IMG/VR virus record: IMGVR_UViG_3300020003_000009 | Location: 1-34,116 of that record | DNA length: 34,116 nt | DNA from: a virus | Lineage: Duplodnaviria > Caudoviricetes | Reading direction: 5' to 3' (one strand) | In this document: positions 971 through 33,972 of the stretch, one piece after another | How positions within the stretch are numbered: the first letter of the stretch is position 1 | Layout: each line of letters starts with the position of its first letter | Notes under the pieces: model-generated | Told to the model about the DNA's origin: nothing | What the model saw: the letters and a program-made list of their open reading frames with translations, nothing else | Databases searched by the model: none | Made by a program: the position numbers and the translations under genes

Positions 971-1478
971 TAAGGGCAAGGGTGCAACACGTGTTGAGGC
1001 GAACGATGTTGCTAAAGAAGCCTCGCTTGCAAGCAAGAAGAAGGAAGAAAAGAAAATGGTAGATAATGCATTACCGTCAATCATTGAGTTTGACGAGGAC
1101 ATTGCAGAAGCTGAAGCTCCTGTTCCCCTACCTGTAGGTGACTACCCCGCAGAAGTTCGCGGCGCTGTTCAAAAGACTGCTAATCAGTCTGGCAATCCTT
1201 ATGCCAGCGTGCAGTTCTTCATCAACGCTGATGCGTACCCTGCGGATTACACTGAGGGTGAACCGGATGGTATGCTGCTTACGTTCAACCGCGTGAGCTT
1301 GCAGAACACTCCTGCGGGTCGTCACCGTCTGCGTAAGTTCCTCGAAGCTATTGGCGCACCCGCTGGTAGCAAGATCGACCTCAATGATTGGGTTGGTCGT
1401 ACTGCAACTGTCACCATTTCCCATGATGAGTGGGAAGGTGAAACGCGCGCCAATATCGCCAAGGTCACTGCGGCCTGA
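942..1478 (+). CDS. DUF669-like phage ssDNA-binding protein (alternative start at 1056)
   Basis: PLPVGDYPAEV...SGNPY...WVGRTATVTISHDEWEGETRANI pattern typical of OB-fold DUF669 proteins that follow Sak4; AAGGAG RBS upstream of 942. Confidence 0.7.
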   Translation: MAETKSKSRNKGKGATRVEANDVAKEASLASKKKEEKKMVDNALPSIIEFDEDIAEAEAPVPLPVGDYPAEVRGAVQKTANQSGNPYASVQFFINADAYPADYTEGEPDGMLLTFNRVSLQNTPAGRHRLRKFLEAIGAPAGSKIDLNDWVGRTATVTISHDEWEGETRANIAKVTAA

Positions 1479-1489
1479 CGGTAGGACTA

Positions 1490-1524
1490 GAGGGCCACTT
1501 TCTGCTTGACAGGGGTGGCCCTTT
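1490..1524 (+). terminator. Hairpin after the SSB gene, probably an intrinsic terminator, with TTGACA in its loop
   Basis: AGGGCCAC (1491-1498) pairs with GTGGCCCT (1515-1522), followed by TTACTT. Confidence 0.6.
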
Positions 1525-1543
1525 ACTTCACAACAAGTGTTGC
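1506..1543 (+). promoter_or_regulatory. Putative sigma70-type promoter overlapped by a palindromic site
   Basis: TTGACA at 1506-1511, 17 nt spacer, weak -10 CACAAC at 1529-1534 overlapping CAACAAGTGTTG (1531-1542). Confidence 0.45.
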
Positions 1544-1575
1544 CCCGAATGGAGGGCAAGATGAAAGGACGAACA

Positions 1576-1836
1576 ATGCCAGCAGATGCACCCAAAAAGC
1601 GTCGGGCTTCCGGCCCCCGTACTCAGCGCCCGATTTTCGCCGTGGTCCGGTACACGGATCAGGACGGTTCGACGGTCCAGCTTGAGCAGTCCAGGCTTTC
1701 GATCCAGATCGAGCGGGACAGCGGCAAGTTGGTTGAAATGCTGACGGGTGGCGGTGACTTCACAGGGGCCGCAGTGGTCAAGGTGCAGTTGCCAGCCCCG
1801 ACGCCTCGTGCGAAGCCTGAGCAGCTTCCAGCTTAG
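1576..1836 (+). CDS. Hypothetical 86-aa protein with basic N-terminus
   Basis: ATG at 1576 preceded by AAAGGACGAACA; visibly GC3-rich codons; flanked by two hairpins. Confidence 0.75.
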   Translation: MPADAPKKRRASGPRTQRPIFAVVRYTDQDGSTVQLEQSRLSIQIERDSGKLVEMLTGGGDFTGAAVVKVQLPAPTPRAKPEQLPA

Positions 1837-1859
1837 TCTGGAGCCTGTTACTAAGCATC

Positions 1860-1893
1860 AGGGGGGTCGGGCTAGTAATCCGGCTCCCCTTTT
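1860..1893 (+). terminator. Intrinsic terminator
   Basis: GGGGGGTCGGG-ctagtaa-TCCGGCTCCCC stem followed by TTTT. Confidence 0.75.
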
Positions 1894-1928
1894 GTCAGTT
1901 GGAACAACAAACGCCTTGGAGAGTTGTC

Positions 1929-2177
1929 ATGAATATGGTAGTAAGCGGGCTAGAGGACTTGACCCTTACTATCCCGGTCCCAAGCTACATACCCCGCGCT
2001 CGGGGCATCCATGCAGTCGGGAAGTTCGGTTCACTACTCAAGGCAAAGTGTACCCCTAGAGAAAAGGAATTGTCACAACAAGCAGCAGACAAGTTGAATA
2101 TCTCTCATGCAGAGTTTATTCGATGGTGTGTTACATGGTGTGCCAAGGAGGTATTACATGATGTTCCAGATGCTTGA
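1929..2177 (+). CDS. Ribbon-helix-helix DNA-binding protein (putative regulator)
   Basis: LLKAKCTPREKELSQQAADKLNISHAEFIRWCV fits the RHH strand-helix-helix pattern (MobC/DUF1778-like); GGAGAG RBS before ATG 1929. Confidence 0.6.
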   Translation: MNMVVSGLEDLTLTIPVPSYIPRARGIHAVGKFGSLLKAKCTPREKELSQQAADKLNISHAEFIRWCVTWCAKEVLHDVPDA

Positions 2178-2400
2178 TCGCGTTGACAAGGCTCTCCGTG
2201 CTCGTATCGAAGCAGTTGCTACTCGCGCTGCTGTTGATGGCGACCGGGGCATTGTCGAATGGGCGCTTCGTGCAACTGACGATGCACTTGCTCTTGGTCG
2301 TATGCGCGACCGGGATCGTGCTACTCTAGCTCGCCTTGAGGACACGTATGGACACGAACAGCTTAATGACAATGGAGGCAGAGTCCTCATTCACGCTTGA
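2158..2400 (+). CDS. Hypothetical protein
   Basis: Strong AAGGAGG RBS before ATG 2158; fills the gap between the RHH gene and the helicase. Confidence 0.6.
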   Translation: MMFQMLDRVDKALRARIEAVATRAAVDGDRGIVEWALRATDDALALGRMRDRDRATLARLEDTYGHEQLNDNGGRVLIHA

Positions 2401-3655
2401 TCCAAAGCAGGATGAAGCTGTAGCACTGTGCTGCAACTTCACAACACGTGTTGCCGGTGTTACCGGTCCTGCTGGATCAGGTAAAACAACCATCCTAAAG
2501 AAAGCTTACAACGAGATACAAGACGCAGGATACCAAGTTGGACTTGCTGCTCCTACTGGTAAAGCTGCTAAACGTATCTACGAAGTCACTGGCATCGAAG
2601 CCATGACTAATCATCGCCTGTTGGAATACACCCATCCCGGTGATCCAGATCCCAAGACAGGCAAGCCCGCACAATTCTCTTATCCTCGTCGTACTAGACA
2701 GCATCCTCTCGATTTAGATGTTCTGTTTGTGGACGAGTACGCGATGGTCAACAATGAGTTGCACCGATCGCTCTTTGATGCGCTCCGTCCTGGGGCGTGT
2801 ATTCGTGTGTTCGGAGACAATAACCAGCTACCGCCCATTGAAGAGGATAAGCGCCTTGAAATGCTTCCATCTTCTTTCATCCAGTTGCTTGACAAGTTCC
2901 CATCCGTGCGATTGGATACAATCCATCGGCAAGGAAAAGACAGTGGTATTCTCCTCAACTTACAACAAGTGTTGCGGGGTAGAATGCCCACACGCAACGA
3001 TCAGTGGACTATGCACTTCACAGACACGCCAGTGGACGCTCTACGTGACTACATCCATGTGAGCATGGCTAAGGGAGTGGACTTCACTGATCCCAGGAAC
3101 CAAATCCTCACACCGCAGAACACAACATGGGTTGGCACTGTAAAGCTCAACCAAATGATCCAATCTCTGTTCCATAACCGTCTCGATCCTGCTTGCATGA
3201 TCCCGCGTCATAAGTGGGTGAAGGGAGAAGGAGACGAGAAGGGTGGCCTGATGCGTATGTACGTCGGGGATAAGGTCATTATCACTCGCAATATGTACGA
3301 ACTCGAGGTTTTCAACGGTGAGAGTGGTAAGATCATTGAGATCACCAATGATGGTGAATTGATCCTTGATTTGGGCGACCGTGAGCAAGCAATTCCACCT
3401 ATTATGATGGTGCAGAACCGTTGGGGTAAGATTGTAGAGATTGATCCCCGTAAGGATGTGGATTTAGGCTATGCAATCACTACGCACAAGTCCCAGGGTT
3501 CAGAATATGACAACGTGTGTTACGTGTTGAACAAAAGCACTGGCTATATGCAGAATAGGCGTAATTTCTACACCGCAACCAGTCGTGGTAGAGAACACGT
3601 GCACCTTATTACCGATCAGCGTTCCCTTTCACTCTCATTGAACAAAAGAGGCTAA
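2336..3655 (+). CDS. RecD/Dda-like SF1B DNA helicase (true start probably 2348-2372)
   Basis: GPAGSGKTT, AAPTGKAAKR, TNHRLL, VDEYAMV, GDNNQLPPI, IHRQ, YAITTHKSQGSEY, YTATSRGR motifs. Confidence 0.92.
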   Translation: MRTRMDTNSLMTMEAESSFTLDPKQDEAVALCCNFTTRVAGVTGPAGSGKTTILKKAYNEIQDAGYQVGLAAPTGKAAKRIYEVTGIEAMTNHRLLEYTHPGDPDPKTGKPAQFSYPRRTRQHPLDLDVLFVDEYAMVNNELHRSLFDALRPGACIRVFGDNNQLPPIEEDKRLEMLPSSFIQLLDKFPSVRLDTIHRQGKDSGILLNLQQVLRGRMPTRNDQWTMHFTDTPVDALRDYIHVSMAKGVDFTDPRNQILTPQNTTWVGTVKLNQMIQSLFHNRLDPACMIPRHKWVKGEGDEKGGLMRMYVGDKVIITRNMYELEVFNGESGKIIEITNDGELILDLGDREQAIPPIMMVQNRWGKIVEIDPRKDVDLGYAITTHKSQGSEYDNVCYVLNKSTGYMQNRRNFYTATSRGREHVHLITDQRSLSLSLNKRG

Positions 3656-3656
3656 C

Positions 3657-3938
3657 ATGGGCGAGTATCTTGAAGAAAGCGGAGACAAAGACAGACTAAC
3701 CAAGACCCTTGAAGTTGCTCCAGGCATTCCAGTGTACGCATTGGACTTGCATGGGGCTACTGTTGGAGAAGGATCAGACGAACACGCTCTTATCTTCGTC
3801 ACACTCTATGATGCTGCGGGCAATCCACACAACTTTGTGTTCCATACGGAAGCAGCAGAGTCACTATCCAAGGCTTTAGGCGAAGCCATCCCTATGCTCA
3901 TCAAACTAGAGGAACACTTAAAGGCTAGGAGGAACTAG
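3657..3938 (+). CDS. Hypothetical protein
   Basis: GAGG RBS, tightly packed between the helicase and the kinase. Confidence 0.7.
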   Translation: MGEYLEESGDKDRLTKTLEVAPGIPVYALDLHGATVGEGSDEHALIFVTLYDAAGNPHNFVFHTEAAESLSKALGEAIPMLIKLEEHLKARRN

Positions 3939-4530
3939 TGGCTAATCACCAAAAGATCATTGTCTTTAATGGCCCTCCTGACTGTGGAAAAGACACTGCG
4001 TCGGATGCAGTACGCTCGTACATCCAAATCCATGCCACTTGGATGCGGCCAACGCACATGAAGTTTGCTGAACCACTCAAACAGGGTGCTCACGCGTTGT
4101 ATAGTGCGTTCCACAACTACGACTACTACGACAATGACGGTCGCAGGGAGAAGAACAACCCTTCAATGCTTTGGAGAGGTTACATGGACCGGAAGCCCTC
4201 GGGTACATCATGCGCAAACGGCTCGTGCGTAATAGCTTTAATAGTGTCGTGGTGTGTAGCGATGGGGGTCGTTTGGGGGATTTGGCGCCTGTTATCGAAC
4301 ACGTAGGCCAGAAGAATGTGCTGATCGTAGAGATACACGCAACAGGTGTTACAGAGTGGGACAACCGCTGTTACATTGGCGATGATGTTCAAGCTATGTA
4401 TCCCGATGTTACTGTGAAGAAGATACCTAACAAGATAGGAGGACGAAGCGACAGAGAGATATTCAGGATGCTGTGCCAAGGCGTAGCTAAGAACTGGTTA
4501 GACATTACAGAGAAAGAGGACGCGTTATGA
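3938..4530 (+). pseudogene. Deoxynucleoside monophosphate kinase-like gene split by a frameshift/deletion near 4165
   Basis: N half has P-loop FNGPPDCGKDT and KFAEPLK; C half (LERLHGPEALG...VVVCSDGGR) lies in the -1 frame. Confidence 0.7.
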
Positions 4531-4715
4531 TTGAAGATATTGGTAAGTACTTTGTCGAAGGCTTGAAAGCTCTTGGCGAAGAGGGACTTGATGGTGCTCA
4601 CAAGATCATTGAGGCTGTTCAAGCTGTAGAAGATGAAGATGATGTCACGAACATCAACGAAGGCTTGGTACAGTTCGATGAGATCTTGGATCAGTTAGGA
4701 CAAGAGGAAGCGTAA
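4527..4715 (+). CDS. Small, highly acidic hypothetical protein
   Basis: GAGGA RBS, ATGA and TAATG overlaps on each side; 18 D/E and 3 K in 62 aa. Confidence 0.75.
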   Translation: MIEDIGKYFVEGLKALGEEGLDGAHKIIEAVQAVEDEDDVTNINEGLVQFDEILDQLGQEEA

Positions 4716-7195
4716 TGGCTAATACAATCGCAGAAATGAACAGAGAGATACAAGTACGCGCAAAGGCGTTAGGACTTGAAGTTGACTGCGGTTGTGATGG
4801 TATGTTCGGCGCAGAGGTAGCTATCATCGGTGAAGCTCCAGGTGAGCGGGAACGCGTGATGAAGATGCCTCTCGTCGGCAGCAGCGGTAAGTACCTTTGG
4901 GACAACTTACGCAAGTACGGACTGTCACGCCAGAAGGTGTATGTGAGTAATGTAATCAAGCGTCAACTGCTCTCTGTCAACATGGCTAACATGAAGGAGA
5001 AGATCAGTGACGGGGAAGTTTCACACTACACAACGATCCTGTTGTGGGAACTCGCTCAACTCCCAAATCTCAGATATGTTGTCTGCCTTGGTAACTATGC
5101 TCTCGCTGCAATTACGGGACTTAGAGGTATCACTAATTATCGAGGGTCGGTGTTCGACGTGCAACTCGGTAGTGTTCATGGAGAAGGAGAGACGAGCAGC
5201 AGGGACGTTAAAGTCGTCGTAATGTACAATCCAGCACACGTGTTGCGTGAAGCTAAGAACGAAGTGATGTTCAAGTTCGACTGCTACAGGCTTAATCAAG
5301 TGATTACGGGGGAGTTCAAAGAGCATGAGATTAACGCCCGTATCAATCCGACGTTCGATGAGGCAATGTCATGGATCGACAAGATGCAAACAGGAGGAAA
5401 GCCTGTTGGACTGGATATTGAGACTTCCAGCGGGGAAACCATTTGCGTGGGGCTTGCAAATGATGCCCATGAGGGACTGTGCATCAACTTCAGAACCAAA
5501 GATGCGAATAGATGGACAGTAAAGGAGGAAGCGCAACTATGGCTGAGGCTTCAGAAGCTCGTAGCAGATCCGTCCGTGCGTCTTGTTACTCAAAATGGAA
5601 TGTACGACTCGTCGTGGACGTATTTCCTGGACAGATTGCGGTTCGGGCCTATATGGTTCGACACGATGCTGGCCCATCACACGCTGTATCCCCGAATGCC
5701 CCATTCGTTGGGCTTCTTAACCACGCAGTATACAACGCACCCTTTCTATAAGGATGAAGGCAAGATTTGGAAGGAAACAGGCGATATTGACGCTGAATGG
5801 GTGTACAATGTCAAAGATGTTTGCCTCATGCTCGCTAGTCAGCAACAAATGTTGCAAGAATTGGAGCAACAAGGACTCAGCGAGTTTTTCTTCAATCATG
5901 TGATGTTCCTGCAACCACATCTAGTCGATATGACTGTTCATGGAGTGGCGATCGACAAGGAGTTGAAGGATCAGATAGCCCAGGATATGAAAGTCACTAT
6001 TGGAGCAATGCGTGATGAGTACTTTGCAATGGTTGCTGACTGCACAGGTGATGTCGAATTTCGTCCTAATCCTAATTCTCCTAAGCAGATGGCCGAACTA
6101 TTCTTCAAGCGACTTAAACTCGTTGGAAGGGGAGTGGCGACTGACAAGGAAAACCGTCGCCGTATGCGGGATCATCCTCGTACTCCAGACGATTGCCGTG
6201 CTTTACTGCTTCACATTGACAACCTCGCTGTAGAGCAGAAGTTCTCATCCACTTATGCGGAGATGTCGGTCGATGAAGATAACCGAATTAGATGTGAATA
6301 TAAACAGACTGGTGTTAGCTCCGCCCCCGGTAGGCTCTCCTCTGCAAGTACTGGTTGGGGGACTGGAACTAACCTTCAGAACCAACCGGGACGGGCACAC
6401 AATATGTTCGTTGCAGACACCGGATACGAGTTTAACTATTTCGACCTCCAACAAGCTGAGTCACGAGTTGTCGGTTTTAGAGCCGTAATCCCGCACTGGA
6501 TGGAACAATTCAACGACCCAAGCGTTGATAGTCATAGAGCACTTGCCTCTATCATGTTCAACGTGCCGTACGAGGATGTACCAGCCACGGATTACAGCAC
6601 TGAAGGCCCATTCGCTCCATTCTCAATTCGTTACATTGCCAAACGCTGTCGTCACGCTCTCAACTACCGCATGATGCCAGATCGGTTGGCTACTACACTG
6701 CAAACCAGTTATGGCGTTGCAGAGTATTTGTGGCACCAGTATCACAAGACGAACCCACAGATACAAGAGTGGTGGGAATGGCAGATCAAGCAAGTGCAAG
6801 AGAAACGGAGGATATACAACGCATACGGGAGGCGATGGATCTTACAGGAGAAGTTCAGTGATGATGCCCTCGAACCTGTTATTGCTTTCTATCCTCAGTC
6901 TACCATTGGTGATAAAGTTGCCAGGGTTATTTATCGGTGTCACACTGACCCTGATTGGCCTAGAGATAGTGCAAGGATCTCACTCAATATCCACGACGCC
7001 CTTATTGCTCTTAATAAGCGGGGTCATGGCGACACAGTTAGACGCGTGATGAAGAAACACGCGCTGGAACCTCTACTGATCGAAGGCATGGACGGTCAGA
7101 TTAGGGAGTTAGTAATTCCATGTGATCTCAAGTGTAGCGAAGCCGATGAGAAGGGCGTTCATCGGTGGAGCACGTTAAGAAAGGTAGAAGCATGA
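4715..7195 (+). CDS. Family A DNA polymerase with N-terminal UDG-like domain and 3'-5' exonuclease
   Basis: UDG family 4-like GEAPG...PLVGSSG...YVSNVIK...VCLG...YNPA; ExoI LDIETS, ExoII QNGMYD, ExoIII YNVKD; GRLSS, NLQN; motif A DLQQAESR, motif B RYIAKRCRHALNY, motif C IHDA. Confidence 0.92.
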   Translation: MANTIAEMNREIQVRAKALGLEVDCGCDGMFGAEVAIIGEAPGERERVMKMPLVGSSGKYLWDNLRKYGLSRQKVYVSNVIKRQLLSVNMANMKEKISDGEVSHYTTILLWELAQLPNLRYVVCLGNYALAAITGLRGITNYRGSVFDVQLGSVHGEGETSSRDVKVVVMYNPAHVLREAKNEVMFKFDCYRLNQVITGEFKEHEINARINPTFDEAMSWIDKMQTGGKPVGLDIETSSGETICVGLANDAHEGLCINFRTKDANRWTVKEEAQLWLRLQKLVADPSVRLVTQNGMYDSSWTYFLDRLRFGPIWFDTMLAHHTLYPRMPHSLGFLTTQYTTHPFYKDEGKIWKETGDIDAEWVYNVKDVCLMLASQQQMLQELEQQGLSEFFFNHVMFLQPHLVDMTVHGVAIDKELKDQIAQDMKVTIGAMRDEYFAMVADCTGDVEFRPNPNSPKQMAELFFKRLKLVGRGVATDKENRRRMRDHPRTPDDCRALLLHIDNLAVEQKFSSTYAEMSVDEDNRIRCEYKQTGVSSAPGRLSSASTGWGTGTNLQNQPGRAHNMFVADTGYEFNYFDLQQAESRVVGFRAVIPHWMEQFNDPSVDSHRALASIMFNVPYEDVPATDYSTEGPFAPFSIRYIAKRCRHALNYRMMPDRLATTLQTSYGVAEYLWHQYHKTNPQIQEWWEWQIKQVQEKRRIYNAYGRRWILQEKFSDDALEPVIAFYPQSTIGDKVARVIYRCHTDPDWPRDSARISLNIHDALIALNKRGHGDTVRRVMKKHALEPLLIEGMDGQIRELVIPCDLKCSEADEKGVHRWSTLRKVEA

Positions 7196-7659
7196 CTGAC
7201 AGAAAAGTTGAGGACACGAAAACCTTCGGTCCCAAAACGAAAGACAGCAAGCGTGCTGGCTCTGGCTACAGTGATGATAAGTCGGAGAAGCAGACACGCG
7301 ACTTGCGTAGTGATCCGATGGATGCAGAAGAACGCGCTGGTCGCAGTGCAGAAGAAGTGAACGCCATGTGCACAGACCAAGCCATCGAAGGTGCTAATCA
7401 GCATCTACACGATGTAACTGCGGGTCACGTGTTTGGTGACACTACTTCGTCAAGCGGTGGTGCAAACAATCCCGGTCAGCATGGCCGTGACGGTGGCGAA
7501 GTCGATGGTGAGGACAGCAATCCTTCACCTGAAGATCCGACACCGGAAGAAGAACTCCCCGTGGAAGATGGTTCCGCTGGAGACGAGTCGGGAACAGTTA
7601 CCGACTTGGGACTGAAGAAAGAGAACGAGCAGAAGGCTCCAGAAGTCAAGAAGCTCTAA
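7192..7659 (+). CDS. Acidic, low-complexity hypothetical protein
   Basis: ATGA overlap with the polymerase stop; D/E/G/S-rich, likely disordered. Confidence 0.7.
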   Translation: MTDRKVEDTKTFGPKTKDSKRAGSGYSDDKSEKQTRDLRSDPMDAEERAGRSAEEVNAMCTDQAIEGANQHLHDVTAGHVFGDTTSSSGGANNPGQHGRDGGEVDGEDSNPSPEDPTPEEELPVEDGSAGDESGTVTDLGLKKENEQKAPEVKKL

Positions 7660-7719
7660 CAACAGGTGTTGCACCCCCGCGCCCGAAGTGCGATAAGGCG
7701 CGGGAGATTGCGGGGGTTT
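7660..7719 (+). promoter_or_regulatory. Leader of the HNH gene: palindromic site, putative promoter and RBS-sequestering hairpin
   Basis: CAACAGGTGTTG at 7660-7671; TTGCAC-N17-GATAAG with upstream TG; ACCCCCGC pairs with GCGGGGGT just before ATG 7720. Confidence 0.55.
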
Positions 7720-8181
7720 ATGAAAGAGATACAACTGACTAGAGGCTATGTTGCTCTTGTCGATGACGAGGACTACGAACTTGTGTCACAATACAACTGG
7801 TCTGTTAGTATAAAGAACCACACGTGTTACGCTCGCAGTCGTCTTGGCAAGGCTGACAACCCTGATACGCTGTTGCACAGGTTCCTACTAAATGCTCCTG
7901 CTGGAGTTGAGGTAGACCACAAAGATGGTAACGGTTTGAATTGTCAAAGGTCTAACATACGTTTGGCAACGTCAAAACAGAATAACTGCAACAAGTGGGT
8001 GCAGGGTGAGGGCTATCGCGGCGTTACACTACGTCCGAATGGTCGTTACCAAGCACGCATAAGAGACGACGAGCGCAGAATTGTTATTGGTACCTTTGAT
8101 ACAGACCTAGAAGCTGCAAGAGCATATGATGAAGCTGCCAGGAAGTATCACGGAGAGTTTGCAATGTTGAACTTTAACTAA
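7720..8181 (+). CDS. HNH endonuclease with C-terminal AP2 DNA-binding domain (free-standing homing endonuclease type)
   Basis: ALVDDEDY, LHRFLL, VDHKDGNGLNCQRSNIR (HNH), then YRGV...YQARI...IGTFDTDLEAARAYDEAARKYHGEFA (AP2). Confidence 0.93.
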   Translation: MKEIQLTRGYVALVDDEDYELVSQYNWSVSIKNHTCYARSRLGKADNPDTLLHRFLLNAPAGVEVDHKDGNGLNCQRSNIRLATSKQNNCNKWVQGEGYRGVTLRPNGRYQARIRDDERRIVIGTFDTDLEAARAYDEAARKYHGEFAMLNFN

Positions 8182-8191
8182 GGATAAGCCA

Positions 8192-8353
8192 ATGCCTAAA
8201 GCCAAGACGCCAGAGCAGCTAGAGAAGGCGCTTCAGGACAACCTAGACCAGTTTCCTGAAGTCACTGCTGATGATCCGTACCTATCGGATGCTAAAGCGT
8301 TCCTTCAACAAGCTATTGCTTGCTTAGGGAAGCAGATCAGAACTAATGTCTAG
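8192..8353 (+). CDS. Hypothetical 53-aa protein absent from the ORF track
   Basis: AAGGA RBS, then MPKAKTPEQLEKALQDNLDQFPEVTADDPYLSDAKAFLQQAIACLGKQIRTNV*; overlaps the next start. Confidence 0.7.
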   Translation: MPKAKTPEQLEKALQDNLDQFPEVTADDPYLSDAKAFLQQAIACLGKQIRTNV

Positions 8354-9611
8354 AGTCAACTACAAGAAGTTAGCGAGGGAGGACTCCTTTGTCGGACAAT
8401 ATCTTGCCTTTTCGGAAAACTCCGAAACTCCCTACGCCTACGACTTCTGGACAGCACTATGGTGTATATCGGTGGCTCTCGGGAGAGATATTGCTGTTGA
8501 TCGGCCTTCCGCTCCTGTTTATCTTAATCTTTACTGTGTCTTGGTTGCTGAGTCGGGAGTTACTAGAAAGTCAACGGCAGTCCGTAGGGCGGTATCCTTT
8601 ATACGTGGAATGTGTAACGATACCAACCAACTCATCGAGTCAAAGATCACACCTGAAAAACTCGAGTTTGATCTTGCTCTGCAATCCATTGAGTTCGGTT
8701 CCGCAAGAGCGTCAATCGCAATAGATGAAATGGTGAAGTTTCTAGGGAAAGAGAAGTATGTCGAAACCATGCCCACCCTTCTCACTGATCTTTACGACTG
8801 TCCTTCGCTCAGGGTTGGGGGCGGAACCCTTCTTCGTGGTAGCACAGTACTTCGGGATGTACACGTTAACTTCCTTTCTGCTTCGACACCCTCATGGCTG
8901 TTGCGAGCTGTTAATCCCGATGTTATCGAGGGAGGCTTCACCTCACGAGTGGTGTTCGTGGTCAGCGAGAAACCAAAGCGTACTGCCCCTTGGCCCACGA
9001 AGTCTGACGATGCAATAAGACAACAGTTGTTGCTGCGCCTCGCTACTATAAGTGAGGAAGCAAAGAAGTTTCCCACTATCGCACTCAGCGAAGGAGCGAT
9101 GTCACGCTTCAAGTCATGGTACAAACACAGGGAGTTGAAACGTGATCCTTACAGAGCTTCTTTCCAAAGTCGGGAGGATAGTCACATCCTCCGCGTGGCT
9201 GCTTTGCTATGCGTTAGTGACGGCACTTGGGAGATACAAGCTTATCACATTACCACTGCGATTAAAGTTGTTATCGAAACTCGTGAAGATGGTGCCGGGA
9301 TATTTGAAGGCACGGGCACCAACTCAAGACTTGTCCTGGGAGTTGACGCCATACGAGACAAGCTCCTTGCGGCGGGGATCGGAGGCATCAAGCACAGCGA
9401 ACTCAGTAAAGCAGTGCAACGATTTATGGACGCCGAACACACACGAACCGCCCTCGATGTGATGCACGAGCTTCAGATGGTACAGAAGTTTGAGAACGTG
9501 AGTGTGGGTCGCGGTAGACCAACTACGATATGGAGAGCGAAGCAAGGCTTAGTGTCTAGCAACGCTCTCGATACCATTCTCAATGCCATTACCCCTACTG
9601 CGGGGGGCTGA
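8346..9611 (+). CDS. DUF3987/YfjI-like AAA+ ATPase with C-terminal winged helix (candidate replicative helicase)
   Basis: NLYCVLVAESGVTRKSTA (Walker A-like), IAIDEM (Walker B), GGFTSR (Arg finger), GRGRPTTIW wing. Confidence 0.7.
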   Translation: MSRVNYKKLAREDSFVGQYLAFSENSETPYAYDFWTALWCISVALGRDIAVDRPSAPVYLNLYCVLVAESGVTRKSTAVRRAVSFIRGMCNDTNQLIESKITPEKLEFDLALQSIEFGSARASIAIDEMVKFLGKEKYVETMPTLLTDLYDCPSLRVGGGTLLRGSTVLRDVHVNFLSASTPSWLLRAVNPDVIEGGFTSRVVFVVSEKPKRTAPWPTKSDDAIRQQLLLRLATISEEAKKFPTIALSEGAMSRFKSWYKHRELKRDPYRASFQSREDSHILRVAALLCVSDGTWEIQAYHITTAIKVVIETREDGAGIFEGTGTNSRLVLGVDAIRDKLLAAGIGGIKHSELSKAVQRFMDAEHTRTALDVMHELQMVQKFENVSVGRGRPTTIWRAKQGLVSSNALDTILNAITPTAGG

Positions 9612-15214: not shown

Positions 15215-15217
15215 AAC

Positions 15218-20257: not shown

Positions 20258-20258
20258 A

Positions 20259-20903: not shown

Positions 20904-20913
20904 AACGACCCCT

Positions 20914-20987
20914 CAAAGAAAGCGGGAGTGGTTTCGACGCAAGGACGAATATACGCTTAGACCACTCCCTACCGTCACGAATGACGG
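20914..20987 (-). terminator. Double-hairpin element, probably a terminator or attenuator after the head genes; possible sRNA
   Basis: On the - strand: CCGUCA-UUCG-UGACGG, then a GGGAGUGGU/ACCACUCCC stem followed by GCUUUCUUU. Confidence 0.7.
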
Positions 20988-20989
20988 GT

Positions 20990-21990: not shown

Positions 21991-22011
21991 TGTTTCGTCC
22001 TTCCAATAGCG

Positions 22012-22959: not shown

Positions 22960-22968
22960 TTCATTCTC

Positions 22969-23976: not shown

Positions 23977-23994
23977 TGTATTCGTCCTTCTCTC

Positions 23995-26169: not shown

Positions 26170-27688
26170 AACGGTGCTTCCTATTATCAGGAGTAGTGTT
26201 ATCGTTCACTTCACCCCAACGCATATAGCTAGGCTTAGAGTTGAACACTCGACGCGCATACAACGCTAAACGAGGTCGATTGGTGAAGAAGTACTTAGTC
26301 ATGTCCATCGCGTGATCGTTCTTGTCGTTGGGCACATCCTGGACTTGTCCTGCGGTGTCCTTCTTCCAGTAGTAGTCAACGATCTCTCGATCCCACCAAT
26401 CCAAGTGATTAGAGATAAAGAACCGTGGTGATCCTAACTCTCCTGTCATTGGATGAGGATGCTTCAGATCAATCTCCAAATAGCTCTGTACCTTAGCCAA
26501 TCCACTCACAATGTTGTTGTTCGCTCTAGTGCAGCCTACTTGGAGTTCCCTAAGCATCCCGGCGACTGTAACACCGACCGTTTGAGTACTACCTGGACCT
26601 CTTCTGAAGATAGCCGGGTCTGCGAGTACAGGGCGGAAACTTGCATCGAAGCCGATCTCTCTGGCAATTTCTCTACGATGATCCTTGATGCGGGTGGCGA
26701 TCTTTTCTGGACTAAGTTCTGCTTCATAGAAACCTCCCATCAAGAACGCGTTGCCGTAGCTGTCGCTAAAGCCAATGCCGTAACAAGCAGGAACCGCAAT
26801 GCCATGATCGTACGCTTCGATAATCTCGGGCCTAAGACCTTCTCTAACCTGCCTAGCAAAGTAATCAATGATTTGATCTTGAGGGAGTAGATGCACCATC
26901 TGATTATATTGCGGATAAACCAAGCCCTCAAAAGCACCCCACCCTCCCATCAGGTAGCGTTCGCGCATTTGTCCTTTGTATGCACTCTCCAGCCCCTGAA
27001 TGTAATCTTCTGGAAGGTTCTCTGCATTTGTGTAAGTTGATCCCTCGAACAACTCGATGATTGGCTCCTTAGTGTCTCTGTCAACCAGCAAGTCAGGATT
27101 GTACAAGCCAATGCGATGATCCAGCACAGGCTTGACAAGCTTACGGTATACCCAATTACGTGTTGGGTTGCACAGCACAAGCATCCAACGTGGTCCAGTG
27201 CGAGGCATAGTAGGATCGTCGCCATCATAGATAGCATTGCCACGCAAGCGGCCTAACAGATCGAGAAAGTCCTTCTCACTAATCTCAGGATCTTCTATCT
27301 GATCTACGACAATCCAATCATAAGTGGCACTGAGTAGGTTGGAACTGGAGCCTTCACCGCTCTTACCATGCTGTTGCACGTAGCGGAAGTTAACAACCGT
27401 TCCGTTCTCTAGCTCAATCAGGTTCTCAACAGATAAGGCTCTACGCTTGATCCAACTGTCAGGACACCAATCTAGGAACTCTTTCCGAATGGTGTCATTG
27501 AGTTTAGGATAAGTACTACGAGCAATAAGACCATTAGACCCAGGATAAGCCTTAGCGAGCTTGAGTGCTTTGATGACACCTGCTGTCGTCTTTCCATTGG
27601 CGAAACCGCCGCCAAAGATTTGCACCTTCGCACGCGAGTTCTGAAACTGGTCCTGTAACGAACCTCTTATCTGTTTGTACTGCTTCAC
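26162..27688 (-). CDS. terL: Terminase large subunit
   Basis: Q motif, Walker A GGFANGKT, Walker B variant WIVVDQIE, coupling motif CNP, nuclease AYDHG / ADP / NDHAMD. Confidence 0.92.
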   Translation of the reverse strand: MKQYKQIRGSLQDQFQNSRAKVQIFGGGFANGKTTAGVIKALKLAKAYPGSNGLIARSTYPKLNDTIRKEFLDWCPDSWIKRRALSVENLIELENGTVVNFRYVQQHGKSGEGSSSNLLSATYDWIVVDQIEDPEISEKDFLDLLGRLRGNAIYDGDDPTMPRTGPRWMLVLCNPTRNWVYRKLVKPVLDHRIGLYNPDLLVDRDTKEPIIELFEGSTYTNAENLPEDYIQGLESAYKGQMRERYLMGGWGAFEGLVYPQYNQMVHLLPQDQIIDYFARQVREGLRPEIIEAYDHGIAVPACYGIGFSDSYGNAFLMGGFYEAELSPEKIATRIKDHRREIAREIGFDASFRPVLADPAIFRRGPGSTQTVGVTVAGMLRELQVGCTRANNNIVSGLAKVQSYLEIDLKHPHPMTGELGSPRFFISNHLDWWDREIVDYYWKKDTAGQVQDVPNDKNDHAMDMTKYFFTNRPRLALYARRVFNSKPSYMRWGEVNDNTTPDNRKHRYG

Positions 27689-27897
27689 TTAGCGACCCAA
27701 CCAGTGTTGCCACTTCCACTCTCTTTAACATAGAACGAAGTGAGAGCACCACCATCGGAGCGATGATAGTGAGCACCTACGTTAGCAGTGATAACACCGT
27801 TAGGTGATCCTGTGCCTCTGTACACAACACCACCAAGTGCAGGGTTGTCGATCAGTGCACCGCCACCGTTACCGCTCAAGTCACGATAAAGAACCAT
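27685..27897 (-). CDS. 70-aa Gly-rich putative virion protein
   Basis: AGGAGG RBS; GTGSPNGVITANVG..Y.RSDGG...YVKESGSGNTGWVAK resembles a module seen at the ends of fibre/spike proteins. Confidence 0.7.
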   Translation of the reverse strand: MVLYRDLSGNGGGALIDNPALGGVVYRGTGSPNGVITANVGAHYHRSDGGALTSFYVKESGSGNTGWVAK

Positions 27898-27906
27898 CTT
27901 ACCCTC

Positions 27907-28434
27907 CTATATCTCGACTGTTGCGTTGAAAGCTACTTGAGCATTGTCAAGCAACACGCTGTCACTGATGCGACGAATTTGCAGTTGCATCTGAGCGTTA
28001 GCAACTCCTGGAGCTGTTCGAACGACTGCCCACGAGCGCGTTGTACTTAGAGGCAACCATGATCCGAAGGTGCCACTAAAGAAGCTGCCACTAGTAACAG
28101 TCGCTAACGCAGCGTAATCACCTGCTGCACCACTTAGTAACCATGCCCAAGGCGTAACACCTGATCCAGATGTCATGCCACTTGCGTTCAAAGCAAAGTT
28201 AGCGTTAGCATCAGCAGGGTCGATAGCGATGGCATCACAAGACACATTATATATATCTACAAGCCCTGTCGGTGTTCCTGCTGAACGGCCAAGGAAGTCT
28301 AAGAAGCCTAACACTCCTGATGCTGGAGCACCACCTAAGCCATAGAAAGCTCCTGGGAAGATTGAGGTTGCAGGGATGCTAAACTCAGCAGCTATCTGAG
28401 TAATTGTGATCGGCGGTGCTAATGGCAGTGTCAC
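27907..28434 (-). CDS. Putative fibre-tip / receptor-binding protein
   Basis: N-terminal TLPLAPPITITQIAAEF...LGFLDFLG motif typical of adhesins that follow fibres carrying an S74 chaperone. Confidence 0.55.
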   Translation of the reverse strand: MTLPLAPPITITQIAAEFSIPATSIFPGAFYGLGGAPASGVLGFLDFLGRSAGTPTGLVDIYNVSCDAIAIDPADANANFALNASGMTSGSGVTPWAWLLSGAAGDYAALATVTSGSFFSGTFGSWLPLSTTRSWAVVRTAPGVANAQMQLQIRRISDSVLLDNAQVAFNATVEI

Positions 28435-31004
28435 CTAGCAGCCTCCAACTTCTGTACTCTGTTGGTTAGCTCCTTAACAGCTTCAATGAGTACAGCAGTA
28501 ATGCGTCCGTAGTCTACAGACAGCATTCCCTCTGCATCCTCGCTCACCAATTCAGGCAATAGCTTCTGTACTTCCTGGGCTATAACTCCTAGATCTGGCT
28601 TATCATCCTTAATGAACCTCACACCACGCAGAGCGTTCACAATCCTTAGCCCGCTGGTTAGCCCCCGGATATTAGTCTTAACTCTCCTGTCTGACAGCGA
28701 ACTGATGTTACCACCAGCAACAAATGCACCACTATGGTACATTTCACCGCTTGGCGCCCAACGTATAGCCGACCATTGCGTTGAAACCGGATTGTCGGTG
28801 ATCTGCATATAAGCATAACCACCCTGTCCACGAATACGAACGCCACCAGTTGATCCAGAGTTAGGTGATAAGAAGTCACCAATGCCGTTAAGTGCTAAAC
28901 CAGTAGCATCAAGGATACCAAAGGTTGCGTCAGCGGCAAGGTTGTAGAAGGTGTAGTTATTCGACCGATACTGGAAGCCAGCGGATGTGATAATCATTCT
29001 GGCCCGCACCGCCATTGCGCCGCCAGCGGCAACATTATACTCATGAAATTGATAAAAGTTTGATGAGTAATAATTCATTACGAGATCAGACGCCGCGCCT
29101 GTCTGTGGGCCAAGCCAGAACGTGTTTCTGTCTACACTCAGACCAGCAGAACCGAGAGCCATATAGGTGACGTTTGCTGCGCTGCGGAAGTTGAAATTGT
29201 TGCTGCCAAAATAAGAGGTCTGATTGCCACACTGTAAATTAAGTCCCTCAGTAACCAGTCCGGTAGCACCTTTCAGTTGCAGGAACGAATAAATGTAACC
29301 GGGAGAAGGGCTAACGGTCAGCATCCCATTATCGCCACTCGCAGGCGGAGTAACATTCAGCACACCTGCAATAGTTCCACCCGTTAGCGGAAGGTAATTC
29401 GCCAGTTGGGAAACGGTGGCAACTGCGTTACCGCCTTGAGTGATTGTGCCAGTGACTGCGAGATTGCCTGCGTCGCTTAACGTGGCGCGGGGTGCTCCAG
29501 CGGAATAGAAAGTGAGAATACCACTGGTGTTGACCGAGAGGATGAAATTGTTCCCAAAGTCACGAGCGGTGAGGTTCATGCCCGCACTCGTGCCCTGTGT
29601 AGTGATTAGGCCAGTGACTGTAGTGTTTCCGTCTACAGTGACGGTAGAACCAGTAAGGACCAATGGTGCAACTGCACCAGCCGTTCGATTGTAGGAATTG
29701 ACATAGCTATTACCAGCAGCTTGATACAACTCCAGGCCAATACCAGACGCTCCAGTTGGTGCTCCAGCCCCTCCACATTGGATACGTGTAAAGATAGACC
29801 CAGAATGGAATTGACCAGCAGAAGTGTTGAGTTGTCCAGTAACAGTTCCACCTGCCAGCGGTAGATAGTTGCCAAGCTGTACAACAGTCGCTTTAGCATC
29901 AAGTGCAGCTTGCAATCCTGTTACATCAGTTATTACGTGCGTATGTACTGATGCAGCCTTGCTATCAAGTGCGGCTTGCAGTCCAGTCACGTTAGCTATT
30001 GCGTGAGTATGGTTGAGTGGTGCAGCACCAACAGTGTTGTAGCTAATGGTGCGAGCTACAGAGCCATCGAATGTTGCAGGACTGGCAGCAGCACCACCAT
30101 CACTGTTAATAGTGAGTGGGAAGGTTGTAACACCACCACCAGGAAAAGAAGGAGCAGCCCAAGCACCATCGGCACGAAGGAAGGCAGTAGTACCACCGGG
30201 ACGCGTTGGTGCTAACCCTGCTGCACTAGTTGATACAAGTGCAAGGCTGGCCTTCGCATCCAGTGAGGCTTGCAGATTAGTCACATCAGCAATGACATGA
30301 GTGTGAACCAATGGAGCCTTAGCATCTAGCGTCGTCTGCAAGTTGGTTACATCAGCGATCACATGGGTATGCACGAGTGGTGCTTTACCATTCAGTGTCG
30401 TCTGTAGATTAGTGACATCTGCAATCACGTGAGTGTGTACTAGCGGCGCTTTACCAGCTAGCGCAGTGTCCAATCCACTGATGTCAGCAGTAGCTAATGA
30501 CTGTATCTTGTCATACACTGCGTTCTTGGTTGGAACTTGTGTTGAGTTGTTCCAAGCAACACCATACACTTGATCGGTGACTGATATGTTGGCAACAGCA
30601 AAAGTTCCACCAACAGTCAGGTTGCCACTTACACTGACACTACCATTGAATGTCTGATCGCCAGTGAATACATTACCACCTGTGATGTTCGCCTTGCCAG
30701 ACATTGCTGTCATAAGATTATTCTCAAGATCAGTTAGATCTTGAGTGAAGGTATCCATGTCACTAGTGAAAGCTACTTCATCACCACCAGGAGTATAACC
30801 GTCACCAACACGCAACCGCTGCGAGGTCCGTGCATAAGCAAGCTCACCCTGTTCTAGAACAAAGGTGTCTAGTGGAACAGGATCATCTGCGATTGGGATA
30901 CGGTTGTCAGAAGGCCACACATTCAGCGCAACACCCTTACCGTTGCCGCTTTCATCTACAACATCAGTGACGCCATCATACGGCAGTCCAGGAATATCAA
31001 CCAT
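28431..31004 (-). CDS. Long tail fibre with C-terminal intramolecular chaperone (peptidase S74-like)
   Basis: HTH.I.DVT.LQ..L repeats, YLPL.GGT motifs, SDRRVKTNI...GVIAQEV...VDYGRITAVLIEAVKEL chaperone. Confidence 0.9.
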   Translation of the reverse strand: MVDIPGLPYDGVTDVVDESGNGKGVALNVWPSDNRIPIADDPVPLDTFVLEQGELAYARTSQRLRVGDGYTPGGDEVAFTSDMDTFTQDLTDLENNLMTAMSGKANITGGNVFTGDQTFNGSVSVSGNLTVGGTFAVANISVTDQVYGVAWNNSTQVPTKNAVYDKIQSLATADISGLDTALAGKAPLVHTHVIADVTNLQTTLNGKAPLVHTHVIADVTNLQTTLDAKAPLVHTHVIADVTNLQASLDAKASLALVSTSAAGLAPTRPGGTTAFLRADGAWAAPSFPGGGVTTFPLTINSDGGAAASPATFDGSVARTISYNTVGAAPLNHTHAIANVTGLQAALDSKAASVHTHVITDVTGLQAALDAKATVVQLGNYLPLAGGTVTGQLNTSAGQFHSGSIFTRIQCGGAGAPTGASGIGLELYQAAGNSYVNSYNRTAGAVAPLVLTGSTVTVDGNTTVTGLITTQGTSAGMNLTARDFGNNFILSVNTSGILTFYSAGAPRATLSDAGNLAVTGTITQGGNAVATVSQLANYLPLTGGTIAGVLNVTPPASGDNGMLTVSPSPGYIYSFLQLKGATGLVTEGLNLQCGNQTSYFGSNNFNFRSAANVTYMALGSAGLSVDRNTFWLGPQTGAASDLVMNYYSSNFYQFHEYNVAAGGAMAVRARMIITSAGFQYRSNNYTFYNLAADATFGILDATGLALNGIGDFLSPNSGSTGGVRIRGQGGYAYMQITDNPVSTQWSAIRWAPSGEMYHSGAFVAGGNISSLSDRRVKTNIRGLTSGLRIVNALRGVRFIKDDKPDLGVIAQEVQKLLPELVSEDAEGMLSVDYGRITAVLIEAVKELTNRVQKLEAAR
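30255..30452 (-). repeat. Three tandem 66-bp (22-aa) phage tail repeats; two more near 29896-30027
   Basis: KAPLVHTHVIADVTNLQ(TT/AS)L(N/D)(G/A) x3. Confidence 0.9.
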
Positions 31005-31605
31005 GAGCAACTTCCTCTGGAGTTACGTCGATCATTGGTACATCTTCGTTGGCTTTCTTCTCGATGTACACAATGTTGAGGGCATCCTCCATCTTGTGAC
31101 GGTGCTCTACCACATCAGCAGGACGATGGCCCGCACGATCCAACACATCCTTCGATGCAGTGAACGCAAGCACATCATTGTCTGACTGTGATAGGTTAAT
31201 GATCTTAGTAGCTGCGTGACTAGCATGGGTCTGGAACATTTCGCGCACGGTATCCGATTGCGTGTGTATCATGTTAGCCTTAGCAGTTTCCATGAACTCG
31301 ATGTAAGCATCAAGCGTACGAATGCGCTCAATCTGCTCTATAGTCAGAGAGCTGTCCAACGCGATGCTGATGTCTTGGTCATTCAACCCAAACAGAGTGT
31401 AGAACGCAACTAGGGCAACGCCACTGAGTTGCTTAGGGGGTAGTGGCAACTCAGTGACGCTCTTACGCGTACGGGCCACAATCCGCTGTGCTTCCCCTGG
31501 GCTAGGAATAAGCACAAGCGGTTGTTCTTTAATTGGCTTACCAGTTGACGGATCAATCTTCGTTCCATCAGCAAGTACCAGTGGTTCGTCAGCTTCGGGT
31601 AGCAC
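30997..31605 (-). CDS. Putative terminase small subunit
   Basis: HTH-like GLNDQDISIALD segment, helical core and ASKDVLDRAG motif common in TerS-like proteins. Confidence 0.55.
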   Translation of the reverse strand: MLPEADEPLVLADGTKIDPSTGKPIKEQPLVLIPSPGEAQRIVARTRKSVTELPLPPKQLSGVALVAFYTLFGLNDQDISIALDSSLTIEQIERIRTLDAYIEFMETAKANMIHTQSDTVREMFQTHASHAATKIINLSQSDNDVLAFTASKDVLDRAGHRPADVVEHRHKMEDALNIVYIEKKANEDVPMIDVTPEEVAHG

Positions 31606-31609
31606 AAAC

Positions 31610-32224
31610 TTACCTCTTCATTAGATTGTTCTTGCTCCAATCGACACCCTTACCACTCCATTTGTATGGACGGGGTTTGGGCTTGGGCTTAGGTGCATTA
31701 GGAGTGAGCAAACGCGGTGGACGACTAAACTTCTCCACTCCTTGCGCTTGCTTACTAGTTCCAGCAACATTCACCGGACTAGTAGGACGTACTCCCATCA
31801 CAGGAGCACTGCTACGCTTTCTAGCAGCGATTGGTGCAATGATAGCAGGAGGCGGTGCAATCGTAGGAACATTAGTGAGAGCAGACACATCTACAGGCAC
31901 TTGTTCCGGTACAAGCGGGCCAGTGTTCTGAACACGGTTAGGATCAGGGGGCTCTATTCCCATCGAAGTGTTAAGCGGTAAGCCCTGTGTCTGTATCGGT
32001 CCCTGCGACAACACACCGATCGGATCTTCTGGCGGTACTAAGTCGTTAAGCTTAGGACCGTTATCCAATACGTTGACTGGTGCAACAGAGGTATCTACCG
32101 CACCGGGAGCTATTGCTGGAGGCATCCCAGGAACAGGAGCAACAGGAGCAGCGACGGGAGCACGAGGAGCACCGATGTTGCCACTACCGATTAGCTTCTC
32201 TAACCACTCTAGGATGTTTGCCAT
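31610..32224 (-). CDS. Proline-rich hypothetical protein
   Basis: Amphipathic N-terminus ANILEWLEKLIG, P/V/A-rich body, basic KPKPKPRP tail. Confidence 0.7.
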   Translation of the reverse strand: MANILEWLEKLIGSGNIGAPRAPVAAPVAPVPGMPPAIAPGAVDTSVAPVNVLDNGPKLNDLVPPEDPIGVLSQGPIQTQGLPLNTSMGIEPPDPNRVQNTGPLVPEQVPVDVSALTNVPTIAPPPAIIAPIAARKRSSAPVMGVRPTSPVNVAGTSKQAQGVEKFSRPPRLLTPNAPKPKPKPRPYKWSGKGVDWSKNNLMKR

Positions 32225-33526
32225 CTACTTGCCCTTTGCCTTCTTGCGTTCAGATAAAGTCTTTGGCGTTGTCTTGCCTTTACGCGCAGTTTCAATCTTG
32301 CGTTTGGCAAGCACTTGAGCAACCGCAGGCTTTGGTGGACCTTTGCGCTTTGGCTTCGGTCCCGGCTTCTTCTTCGGTAACTCTGGACCTACATAAGCTT
32401 TCTTCGGTTCCTTAAGCCAAGGCTTTAGATCTTTCACTGCTTCCTTTAGTGGTCGCTTCGCATCACGAATAGCCTCTACGACTTCATTAAAGGATTTGCG
32501 TTCGCCTTCTTCACGCGGAACTCTGCGGTCTGGCGTGAATTGCTGAGGAGGCTTGCCAACAGCACCGGGACGCCTTCTGTTTATGCGTTCCGTCTTTGCA
32601 GCAGACCGCGCACGATCACGCGCAATCTGGCCTGAAACTCTAATCGCTTTCGCTAACTCACTGCCACCAAGATCAGCTGCTTCATCTAATGGAGCCGTAT
32701 AAGTGGGGAGTATAGGACGCGGTGTTACAGGCGGCGGCGGCGGTAATTGGCCTTCACCGGGAACACGAATGTTGCCTCTTGCACGTTCCGCAAGTGCTAA
32801 TGGTATCTCTGATGTTACATCAGTGCGCGTAAGTGTTGGCGGCGGTAATGTACCATCAGCATTAGGTATAACAGAACTAGCAGCAGCACCAGGAGTAGGC
32901 ACAACATCTGTTAGATCTAGTGGAGGTTCAGCACCAGCAGCAGGACGGTGAGGCCCATACACAGGAGGTGAAGGGGGATAGTTGTGTGGTTGCGTTGGAC
33001 CGTAAGTACCTCCCGGTCCCGGTTTTGGCGGGGGGCGTTGGGGTCCGTATGGTTGGTGTGGTCCGTAAGCACGACCGGGATGCTTAAGCGGAGGCTTACG
33101 CATTTCACCAGCAGCAGTGTCTACAGTTTTCTTACCACCTTTAGCTTTGCGCGCAAGTCCTTTGCGTCCCGCTAGTGCAGCAATAGCAAGGGGTAACATC
33201 CACCAAGGACTAATCCCTCCACCGTCACCTTCAGCAGTTTTCTTGGCAACGACTGGTTCTTCTGGAGCTAGTTCTGTTGGTGGAGGTGCAGCAGCAGGTG
33301 GAGGCGGTGCAGCAGCAGCAACCATTGCAGCACGGCGCTTATCACGCTCTGCCATTATAGCTTCAACAGCAGATTGCGGTTGGGGTTGTCCACCGACAAA
33401 CTCAGGTGGAGGCATCACAGAGGGAACACCCTGTGACATATTCAACCCCAGACGCCGCAACTCTTCTTCTATTGCTGATATTGGTACAGCAGGATCAATT
33501 GCGGCGCCTGAAGCTTGAATTGGCAT
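32225..33526 (-). CDS. Proline/lysine-rich hypothetical protein with one hydrophobic segment
   Basis: 433 aa; PWWMLPLAIAALAG segment, four YGPx(Q/R)P repeats, Lys-rich C-terminus; GGAGAGG RBS. Confidence 0.75.
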   Translation of the reverse strand: MPIQASGAAIDPAVPISAIEEELRRLGLNMSQGVPSVMPPPEFVGGQPQPQSAVEAIMAERDKRRAAMVAAAAPPPPAAAPPPTELAPEEPVVAKKTAEGDGGGISPWWMLPLAIAALAGRKGLARKAKGGKKTVDTAAGEMRKPPLKHPGRAYGPHQPYGPQRPPPKPGPGGTYGPTQPHNYPPSPPVYGPHRPAAGAEPPLDLTDVVPTPGAAASSVIPNADGTLPPPTLTRTDVTSEIPLALAERARGNIRVPGEGQLPPPPPVTPRPILPTYTAPLDEAADLGGSELAKAIRVSGQIARDRARSAAKTERINRRRPGAVGKPPQQFTPDRRVPREEGERKSFNEVVEAIRDAKRPLKEAVKDLKPWLKEPKKAYVGPELPKKKPGPKPKRKGPPKPAVAQVLAKRKIETARKGKTTPKTLSERKKAKGK

Positions 33527-33615
33527 TATAGGTTGATCCTCTCCAGAATGAGAAGAAGAAACAAGATCGAACCTAGCAAATAGAACGCTAGAGTGAACAA
33601 TCTATCAACAGTCAC
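33526..33615 (-). CDS. 29-aa single-transmembrane peptide absent from the ORF track
   Basis: GAGGAGGTGA RBS, GTG start, MTVDRLFTLAFYLLGSILFLLLILERINL*, TAATG overlap with the next gene. Confidence 0.8.
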   Translation of the reverse strand: MTVDRLFTLAFYLLGSILFLLLILERINL

Positions 33616-33633
33616 TGGATCACCTCCTCTCGG

Positions 33634-33972
33634 TTATGAACGCGTAAAGGCGGGACCACCATTCCCACTCAAATCCTTGGGAAATGCGAAAGAGGGTTTC
33701 TTCTTCGTGAACCTCTGCTTGAGTGCAGTAACATCAGCAGCAGTAGAGTTGCGGTTGATGAGGGTTTCACTCTCAACAGCACCAATCTCTTCGTTCACGT
33801 TAGTAGGATGCTTGCGGCGACTCTTTACAACACTTGTTGCGACACCTGGAGCAGCACCCGTTGCAGTGTCTACGAGTTTGTTGCGTACAAGGCGATGAGT
33901 GAGAGGAGTAGTGTTACGAGGGAGTATGCCACGTTCCGTACCACCTTCAAAACCGGGAGCATTCTCTGCCAT
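33634..33972 (-). CDS. Hypothetical protein, first gene of the late operon
   Basis: AGGAGA RBS; C-terminal KDLSGNGG motif. Confidence 0.75.
   Translation of the reverse strand: MAENAPGFEGGTERGILPRNTTPLTHRLVRNKLVDTATGAAPGVATSVVKSRRKHPTNVNEEIGAVESETLINRNSTAADVTALKQRFTKKKPSFAFPKDLSGNGGPAFTRS

Follow-up and report, generated by a model that had tools for sequence, protein, structure and literature searches.

Dispersed palindromes that are read by one element-encoded dimer are familiar from the inverted repeats of the phiC31 repressor, the KorB operators of RK2 and the centromeres of N15. Dispersed dyad arrays have already been described in non-temperate phages as well, namely the Cluster O mycobacteriophages (Corndog), with 34 copies of a 17-bp dyad whose binder and function are unassigned in the accessible part of the report (PMC4351075). 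The Cluster A stoperators (L5 gp71, TipsytheTRex repressor), as presented in the available part of their description, are asymmetric 13-mers that are oriented with transcription, lie in short intergenic spaces and are bound by the monomeric repressor of a temperate phage, which has two helix-turn-helix (HTH) motifs (PMC9283540). Here we analyse an array of perfect palindromes, CAACA-N2-TGTTG, in the virus record IMGVR_UViG_3300020003_000009, a whole linear record of 34,116 nt (hereafter the window) that is a fragment of an uncultured, podovirus-like phage. The system of which it forms part extends across the phage family, where it occurs in several spellings. A literature search that covered few subscription journals found no paper on CAACA-N2-TGTTG or on the phage family, and in the accessible part of PMC12658196 the motif words occur only in oligonucleotide tables and in an unrelated operator.

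The palindrome array and its conservation

The window holds ten exact copies of the palindrome, compared with a mean of 0.06 in dinucleotide shuffles (0 of 100 reached ten), and 17 copies with at most one mismatch, compared with a mean of 1.97 (0 of 100 reached 17). An earlier note, made from the letters of this DNA, had listed ten exact and seven one-mismatch copies and had called them rare by chance; all 17 coordinates were correct, and the shuffles bear out the rarity. A codon-preserving shuffle, which that note had proposed as a check, was run genome-wide on 35 called genes, keeping every protein and the codon usage, and left a mean of 0.17 exact copies in coding sequence where the window has seven (0 of 1000 shuffles), and 2.13 copies with at most one mismatch where the window has 14 (0 of 200). 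The two kinds of shuffle rule out chance and codon bias as the origin of the array. When spacers of 0 to 15 bases were compared, N2 alone was enriched (10 copies), N1 giving 2. Since the sites within genes occupy every reading frame and either coding strand, and are conserved at the synonymous positions considered below, constraint at the level of protein is ruled out and the constraint acts on the DNA, as had been argued from the differing frames.

Seven of the exact sites are in the replication arm (149..9611, + strand), which encodes Sak4-like, SSB, RecD-like helicase, dNMP kinase, uracil-DNA-glycosylase-fused PolA, HNH and primase proteins, and three are in the late or virion arm (9595..33972, - strand), with the internal proteins, capsid, portal, terminase and tail fibres. 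The first site (985..996) separates SSB from the Sak4-like gene, unless SSB starts at 942, in which case the site belongs to a 5' extension of that gene; it is intact in the relatives G001 and L045 and lost in the relative G002. The next (1531..1542) lies over the predicted -10 of a TTGACA promoter (1506, 17-bp spacing) ahead of a small open reading frame (ORF) and the ribbon-helix-helix (RHH) and helicase genes, and is intact in G001, G002 and L045, as is the site at codon 32 of the helicase gene (2442..2453). A second helicase site (2963..2974) is intact in G001, has one mismatch in G002 and is lost in L045. The site in the DNA polymerase gene (5843..5854) is intact in G001 and G002 with a changed centre, and the intergenic site at 7660..7671, which overlaps a TTGCAC -35-like hexamer (7669) ahead of the HNH gene, is likewise intact with a changed centre in G001. 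The HNH endonuclease gene (7720-8181) follows this last site directly and is missing at the same place in G001, where the alignment has a gap. The remaining sites are in the primase/helicase gene (9021..9032), a late gene of 1383 aa (11760..11771), another late gene (16812..16823; intact in G001, G002 and G010) and the last gene of the late arm (33828..33839), which adjoins the missing early arm. The seven one-mismatch copies start at 3123, 4340, 11138, 13006, 15295, 27698 and 32902 (span 3123..32913), where about two are expected by chance; one or more of G001, G002 and G010 have kept those at 3123, 4340, 13006 and 27698 with no more than one mismatch.

The overlaps with promoter-like elements at 1531 (-10) and 7660 (-35) are, by inspection, as the note had described them, the promoters being predicted only. 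Its figure of eight sites in ORFs holds if SSB starts at ATG 942, and gives way to seven coding and three intergenic sites, with 985 among the latter, if the start is 1056. The TTYA...C extension that it had seen comes down to a weak flank preference (G 0.43 or A 0.29 at -1, C 0.41 at -2 and T 0.43 at -3, in 51 non-orthologous contexts from 10 clade sequences). The array, which it had called genome-wide, is indeed spread over the genome but is strongly concentrated in the early arm, the greater part of which lies outside the window: relatives of 42-45 kb carry an early region of small genes, and comparison with them indicates that this region, the first ~10 kb, is missing here. In near-complete relatives, exact copies number 26 in G001, 21 in G002 and 7 in G004, with none in a reversed control and none in two short fragments, and their densities per kb in the early, replication and late regions are 1.41, 0.91 and 0.17 in G001, 1.36, 0.33 and 0.13 in G002, and 0.44, 0 and 0.08 in G004.

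Between the window and G001, the closest of these relatives, all ten sites are intact and none of the 100 fixed bases differs, compared with 3 of 20 centre bases and 30 of 240 flank bases. At synonymous third positions, where the note had suggested that conservation be looked for, 0 of 24 differ within sites, compared with 2166 of 7552 (29%) elsewhere (P = 3e-4). Between G001 and L209 the figure within sites is 1 of 30 (P = 1e-3); the two comparisons share ancestry and are not independent. Positions turn over with distance: three of the seven coding sites of the window are exact in G002 and none of the seven in G004, and site 2963 is lost in L045 (44.8 kb, 97% identical). Judged from these alignments, possession of sites is therefore under selection more than their exact positions. 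The sites are spaced more evenly than random in G001 (coefficient of variation 0.45 versus 0.93, P = 0.0002) and in L209 (P = 0.004). By our own gene calls, 15 of the 19 early and replication sites of G001 are inside genes, and 11 of these 15 have a start codon no more than 150 nt away (one of them by way of an overlapping ORF). Site centres occur in both senses in the early arms (GT 9, AC 5, related genomes pooled).

Lineage-specific palindromes and the first early gene

An unbiased palindrome scan was run against Markov nulls, for which the best P was 8.6e-6 in 50 runs, and an array was called strong when the best dispersed palindrome had P ≤ 2e-6; the helicase and nuclease alignments comprised the best 80 loci each from longer match lists. 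The scan found some ten lineages in the family, each with its own different palindrome: CAACG-N2-CGTTG in G006, GTAAG-N2-CTTAC in G007 (borderline genome-wide, 5e-7 in the arm), CATT-N2-AATG in G024, G028 and G029, ACACGTGT in G041, TAACA-N2-TGTTA in G044, TTATA-N2-TATAA in G047, TTAC-YGCR-GTAA in G035, GCACA-N3-TGTGC in G036, G038 and G039, TCTACA-N2-TGTAGA in G050 and, weakly, TGTC-N3-GACA in G032. Cross-counting of 11 motifs in 35 genomes gave a near-diagonal pattern except for TGTC-N3-GACA, which is common in other genomes too (up to 7 copies) and whose array is the least secure of the 13 called. In many family genomes the scan detected no array.

The first early gene of G001 (28509-29450, outside the window) encodes a protein of ~300 aa. 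Among 32 genomes in which the start of the early arm is covered (arms under 6 kb, those of G013, G026, G044 and G057, were left out), 24 open with an ORF of 227-459 aa, and a strong array is found in 13 of them. Thus all 13 strong-array genomes with a covered arm start have the first ORF, and none of the 8 genomes without it has a strong array (Fisher P = 0.007, kinship uncorrected). In 9 of 17 motif-assigned genomes (G001, G002, G048, G004, G024, G029, G038, G041 and G047, the last with a one-mismatch copy) a copy of the lineage's own site either overlaps the -35 of the TTGAC-type promoter predicted ahead of the first gene or is found 8-29 bp upstream of it. These represent 7 independent placements with five different motifs, where chance gives 0.02-0.07 per genome; the motifs came from the genome-wide scans and the promoter pattern was analyst-defined. 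The varying distances between site and promoter would fit repression better than phased activation. Related first genes accompany related-looking sites in G007, G041 and G047, though in these genomes the RHH strands differ or the RHH gene is absent.

A profile search with the first-gene product gave 82 relatives. Its AlphaFold2 model is confident (pLDDT 92.6; core 96.6, pTM 0.91) and predicts a long helix at the N-terminus, an alpha/beta core, a basic linker and, at the C-terminus, a helical hairpin. The core contains a putative helix-turn-long-helix at 123-166, in which basic residues are conserved at 124, 129, 148 and 154 and residues vary where the second helix begins. Searches with this model found nothing at E ≤ 0.001 in the PDB with Foldseek, best Z scores of 5.0 (N-terminal helix) and 4.6 (core) with VIA, and one uncharacterized viral protein in BFVD (E = 8e-4), while a sequence search of the PDB returned none under E = 0.08. 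The atlas neighbours of the product are unnamed viral clusters only, with DUF3102 at 0.83 as no more than a lead. These fold-search results do not establish a new fold. In a BLAST protein-cluster screen, none of the 70 most widespread clusters was in all 13 array genomes and absent from the 12 others; the first gene escaped this screen because it is split across several clusters. Scans for further first-gene loci added no new lineage.

Readings of the array

We infer that a protein binds the sites as a dimer, that this protein is the first-gene product and that the effect is repression, and these parts differ in strength. A dimer is the natural expectation from a palindrome, and where the earlier note had left open whether the binder is encoded by phage or host, a phage-encoded dimeric binder is very probable, being favoured by the lineage-specific spellings and the link to the first gene. 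On balance the first-gene product is likely to be that binder, and we take it as the best candidate. More tentatively, and at slightly less than even odds overall, we propose that its dimer binds the palindrome and, as its most probable role, represses its own promoter and damps transcription of the early arm. The protein would be made from the first strong sigma70-type promoter once the DNA enters, would occupy the site beside that promoter and so exert negative feedback, and would occupy further sites every ~0.6 kb, many of them just inside gene starts, where it could block promoters or obstruct elongation. Early transcription would be damped as the protein accumulates, and site and protein would drift together into lineage-specific pairs. 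It is conceivable, though we think it unlikely, that the first gene, encoding a DNA-binding protein whose fold would be undescribed, and its matching array form a lock-and-key immunity code, by which an established phage would silence the entire early arm of an incoming relative of the same spelling without integrase or classical repressor, and in which competition would drive re-spelling.

Several observations weigh against repression by the first-gene product. A strong array is lacking in 11 of the 24 genomes that have a first gene, among them G011, G012 and G049, whose first genes are clear homologues, and the 8 genomes without both form about three groups, 6 of them in one clade of a quick tree, so that the Fisher P overstates the support and two or three independent contrasts remain. 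No site was found near the first promoter in G032, G036 and G060, and there is no promoter match ahead of the first gene in G007 and G042. Homology between first-gene groups is weak (A6 versus A10, probability 56%, E = 1e-4; A6 versus A7, E = 0.028; none detected between A10 and A7), and what is suggestive centres on one helix, so that the 'first gene' may not be one family. G032 (first ORF 41554-42468) and G058 are 87-95% alike along most of their sequence and both contain TGTC-N3-GACA copies, yet have dissimilar first genes, possibly through a recent swap of the candidate binder gene. The product matches no known DNA-binding family, there being no convincing PHROG match for the 82 relatives and no Pfam match at cut-off for eight first-gene queries. 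The window's own first gene is presumed from relatives that are 80-88% identical in DNA. The majority of sites are distant from any predicted promoter, and distance from promoters is the argument that the Cluster O authors raise against a transcriptional role in the accessible part of their report (PMC4351075). Finally, the even spacing is non-significant in G002 (P = 0.07) and G004 (P = 0.28).

The same protein could instead act in an architectural or protective way, coating or bridging the first-entering DNA at regular intervals for entry, compaction or as a nuclease shield, with secondary effects on transcription. The ~0.6-kb spacing in G001 and L209, the location of most early and replication sites of G001 within genes and the turnover of positions are all consistent with this, and oligomerization could be mediated by the long N-terminal helix and the separate hairpin at the C-terminus of the model. 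Such a role is nevertheless a lesser possibility, given the recurrence of a site next to the first promoter even where lineages differ in motif, the closeness of the in-gene sites of G001 to start codons, which suggests a link with gene expression, and the uneven spacing in G002 and G004. A reading in which the sites form hairpins or cruciforms in DNA or RNA, or recombination points, dispenses with a sequence-specific protein altogether. The sites are inverted repeats, and recombination at repeats accounts for some indels in Cluster O, according to the part of that report available (PMC4351075). The arms here, though, are invariant in sequence and not merely in pairing, a stem of 5 bp would not be stable with a loop of only two bases, and complementarity between the flanks does not exceed chance (17, 13, 15 and 11 of 51 contexts, versus 15.6, 14.8, 14.9 and 13.0 expected), which disfavours hairpins and leaves this reading with very little probability.

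A recognizable dimeric DNA-binding fold is offered by the RHH protein (1929..2177, + strand), which could read the sites through its beta strand. It is NikA-like below the Pfam cut-off (PF21983, E = 0.0016), its atlas neighbours are RHH_5 and RHH_1, and 66 of 87 related sequences have, just ahead of the helicase, an orthologue with a conserved N-terminal arm and a widely varying beta strand. The predicted promoter of the RHH operon is overlapped by site 1531, lineages that differ in motif also differ in this strand, and G024 and G029, though 10 points apart in GC, have the same strand as well as the same motif. This reading is lowered by array genomes without the gene, as G047 and G035 have none at the syntenic place and none was detected at the locus of G050, which has an array. 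Conversely, RHH is present without an array in G016 (a large clade), G062, G065, G040, G011, G012 and others, G003 has the same K-A-K strand and no site in 6.7 kb, and G004 has no site near its RHH operon. As far as presence and absence at these loci can tell, the RHH gene is neither necessary nor sufficient for the array, and we hold it improbable that its product is the binder. In the orthologue of G001 (40200-40424) an in-frame deletion removes 8 residues from the first helix, and G001 nonetheless has the most sites (26). A recruited host protein (LexA-, TetR- or ParB-like), with motifs differing because hosts differ, is if anything less credible still. The CAAC-N4-GTTG geometry resembles GAAC-N4-GTTC, which we take to be the Gram-positive SOS box, and several family motifs have a CACGTG centre that is presumably parS-like. 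GAAC-N4-GTTC is not enriched, however (0-5 copies), some ten mutually exclusive spellings of similar 10-16-bp dyad geometry occur within one phage family, and sites are consistently beside the phage's first promoter. A small early ORF of G001 (33422-33652) ends in a Fis-family HTH (Pfam HTH_8, E = 1e-9); it is ruled out as the array binder, since it has no tblastn match in G002 or G004.

The phage family and comparison with known systems

In polymerase and capsid searches, cultured phages reach at best ~25-30% identity to window proteins, with no Cluster O phage among the top 30 matches listed for either, and searches with the RHH protein and the PD-(D/E)XK nuclease turned up no cultured relative. 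No prophage of the family came to light when 185,579 prokaryote genomes were scanned twice, the sole match being a phage-only contig in a bacterial metagenome-assembled genome. This locus, L319, is 16 kb of that contig and encodes a capsid protein 77% identical; the fetched part carries only genes of phage virion type and therefore gives no evidence of a host. Integrase, ParA/B and repressor families had no matches in 37 window ORFs and 25 early ORFs of G001, with remote homologues possible, and on this sequence evidence the family appears to be non-integrating. In the replication arm, the DNA polymerase gene (4715-7195) encodes a family A enzyme with an N-terminal domain of the uracil-DNA-glycosylase superfamily. 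At 4162-4165 the window has 49 bases fewer than the otherwise identical locus L001, with the same break relative to L045, which splits the dNMP kinase gene into ORFs 3938-4306 and 4171-4530; this gap is probably an assembly slip.

Some ten site spellings occur naturally in this family, and each has a candidate protein as its counterpart. Should the first-gene product prove to be the binder, its fold would be a new one for sequence-specific DNA binding and could supply orthogonal repressor-operator pairs, and the system may uncover a shut-off of early genes, or an immunity to superinfection, that does not depend on lysogeny.

The dispersed palindromes of phiC31, RK2 and N15 differ from this array in their partners, as no c-type repressor, ParB/KorB or ParA match was found among the early and replication proteins scanned; a ParB-family protein had no Pfam or PHROG match and was not listed in the fold searches, remote ones being possible. 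For the parS/matS-type sites to which the earlier note likened the array, Pfam and PHROG scans found no parS/ParB or matS-type partner. Unlike in Arc/MetJ/omega-like operator systems, the RHH gene and the sites also occur apart from each other. The note's other analogy, with stoperators, does not stand, because the sites in the window are perfect 5-2-5 dyads without orientation, whereas stoperators, in the accessible part of their description, are asymmetric and oriented with transcription (PMC9283540). The sites are also mostly in genes, and no integrase or repressor match accompanies them among the ORFs scanned. Like the Cluster A operators and stoperators, on the other hand, there are more than twenty dispersed sites, some at promoters, with a specificity that diversifies among relatives, and by analogy the array may be partly stoperator-like in its working. 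The closest likeness in form is to Cluster O, with which the array shares invariant dyad arms around a free centre, many copies both in and between genes and a higher density toward one genome end; from what is accessible of that report, one third or more of the sites are inside genes in both, many of them near gene starts, and no integrase is known in either. The site here is 12 bp and not 17 bp, the motif is different and is spelled in some ten lineage-specific ways, and, unlike in Cluster O, selection at synonymous sites has been measured and a candidate binder can be named, with a site that recurs at its predicted promoter.

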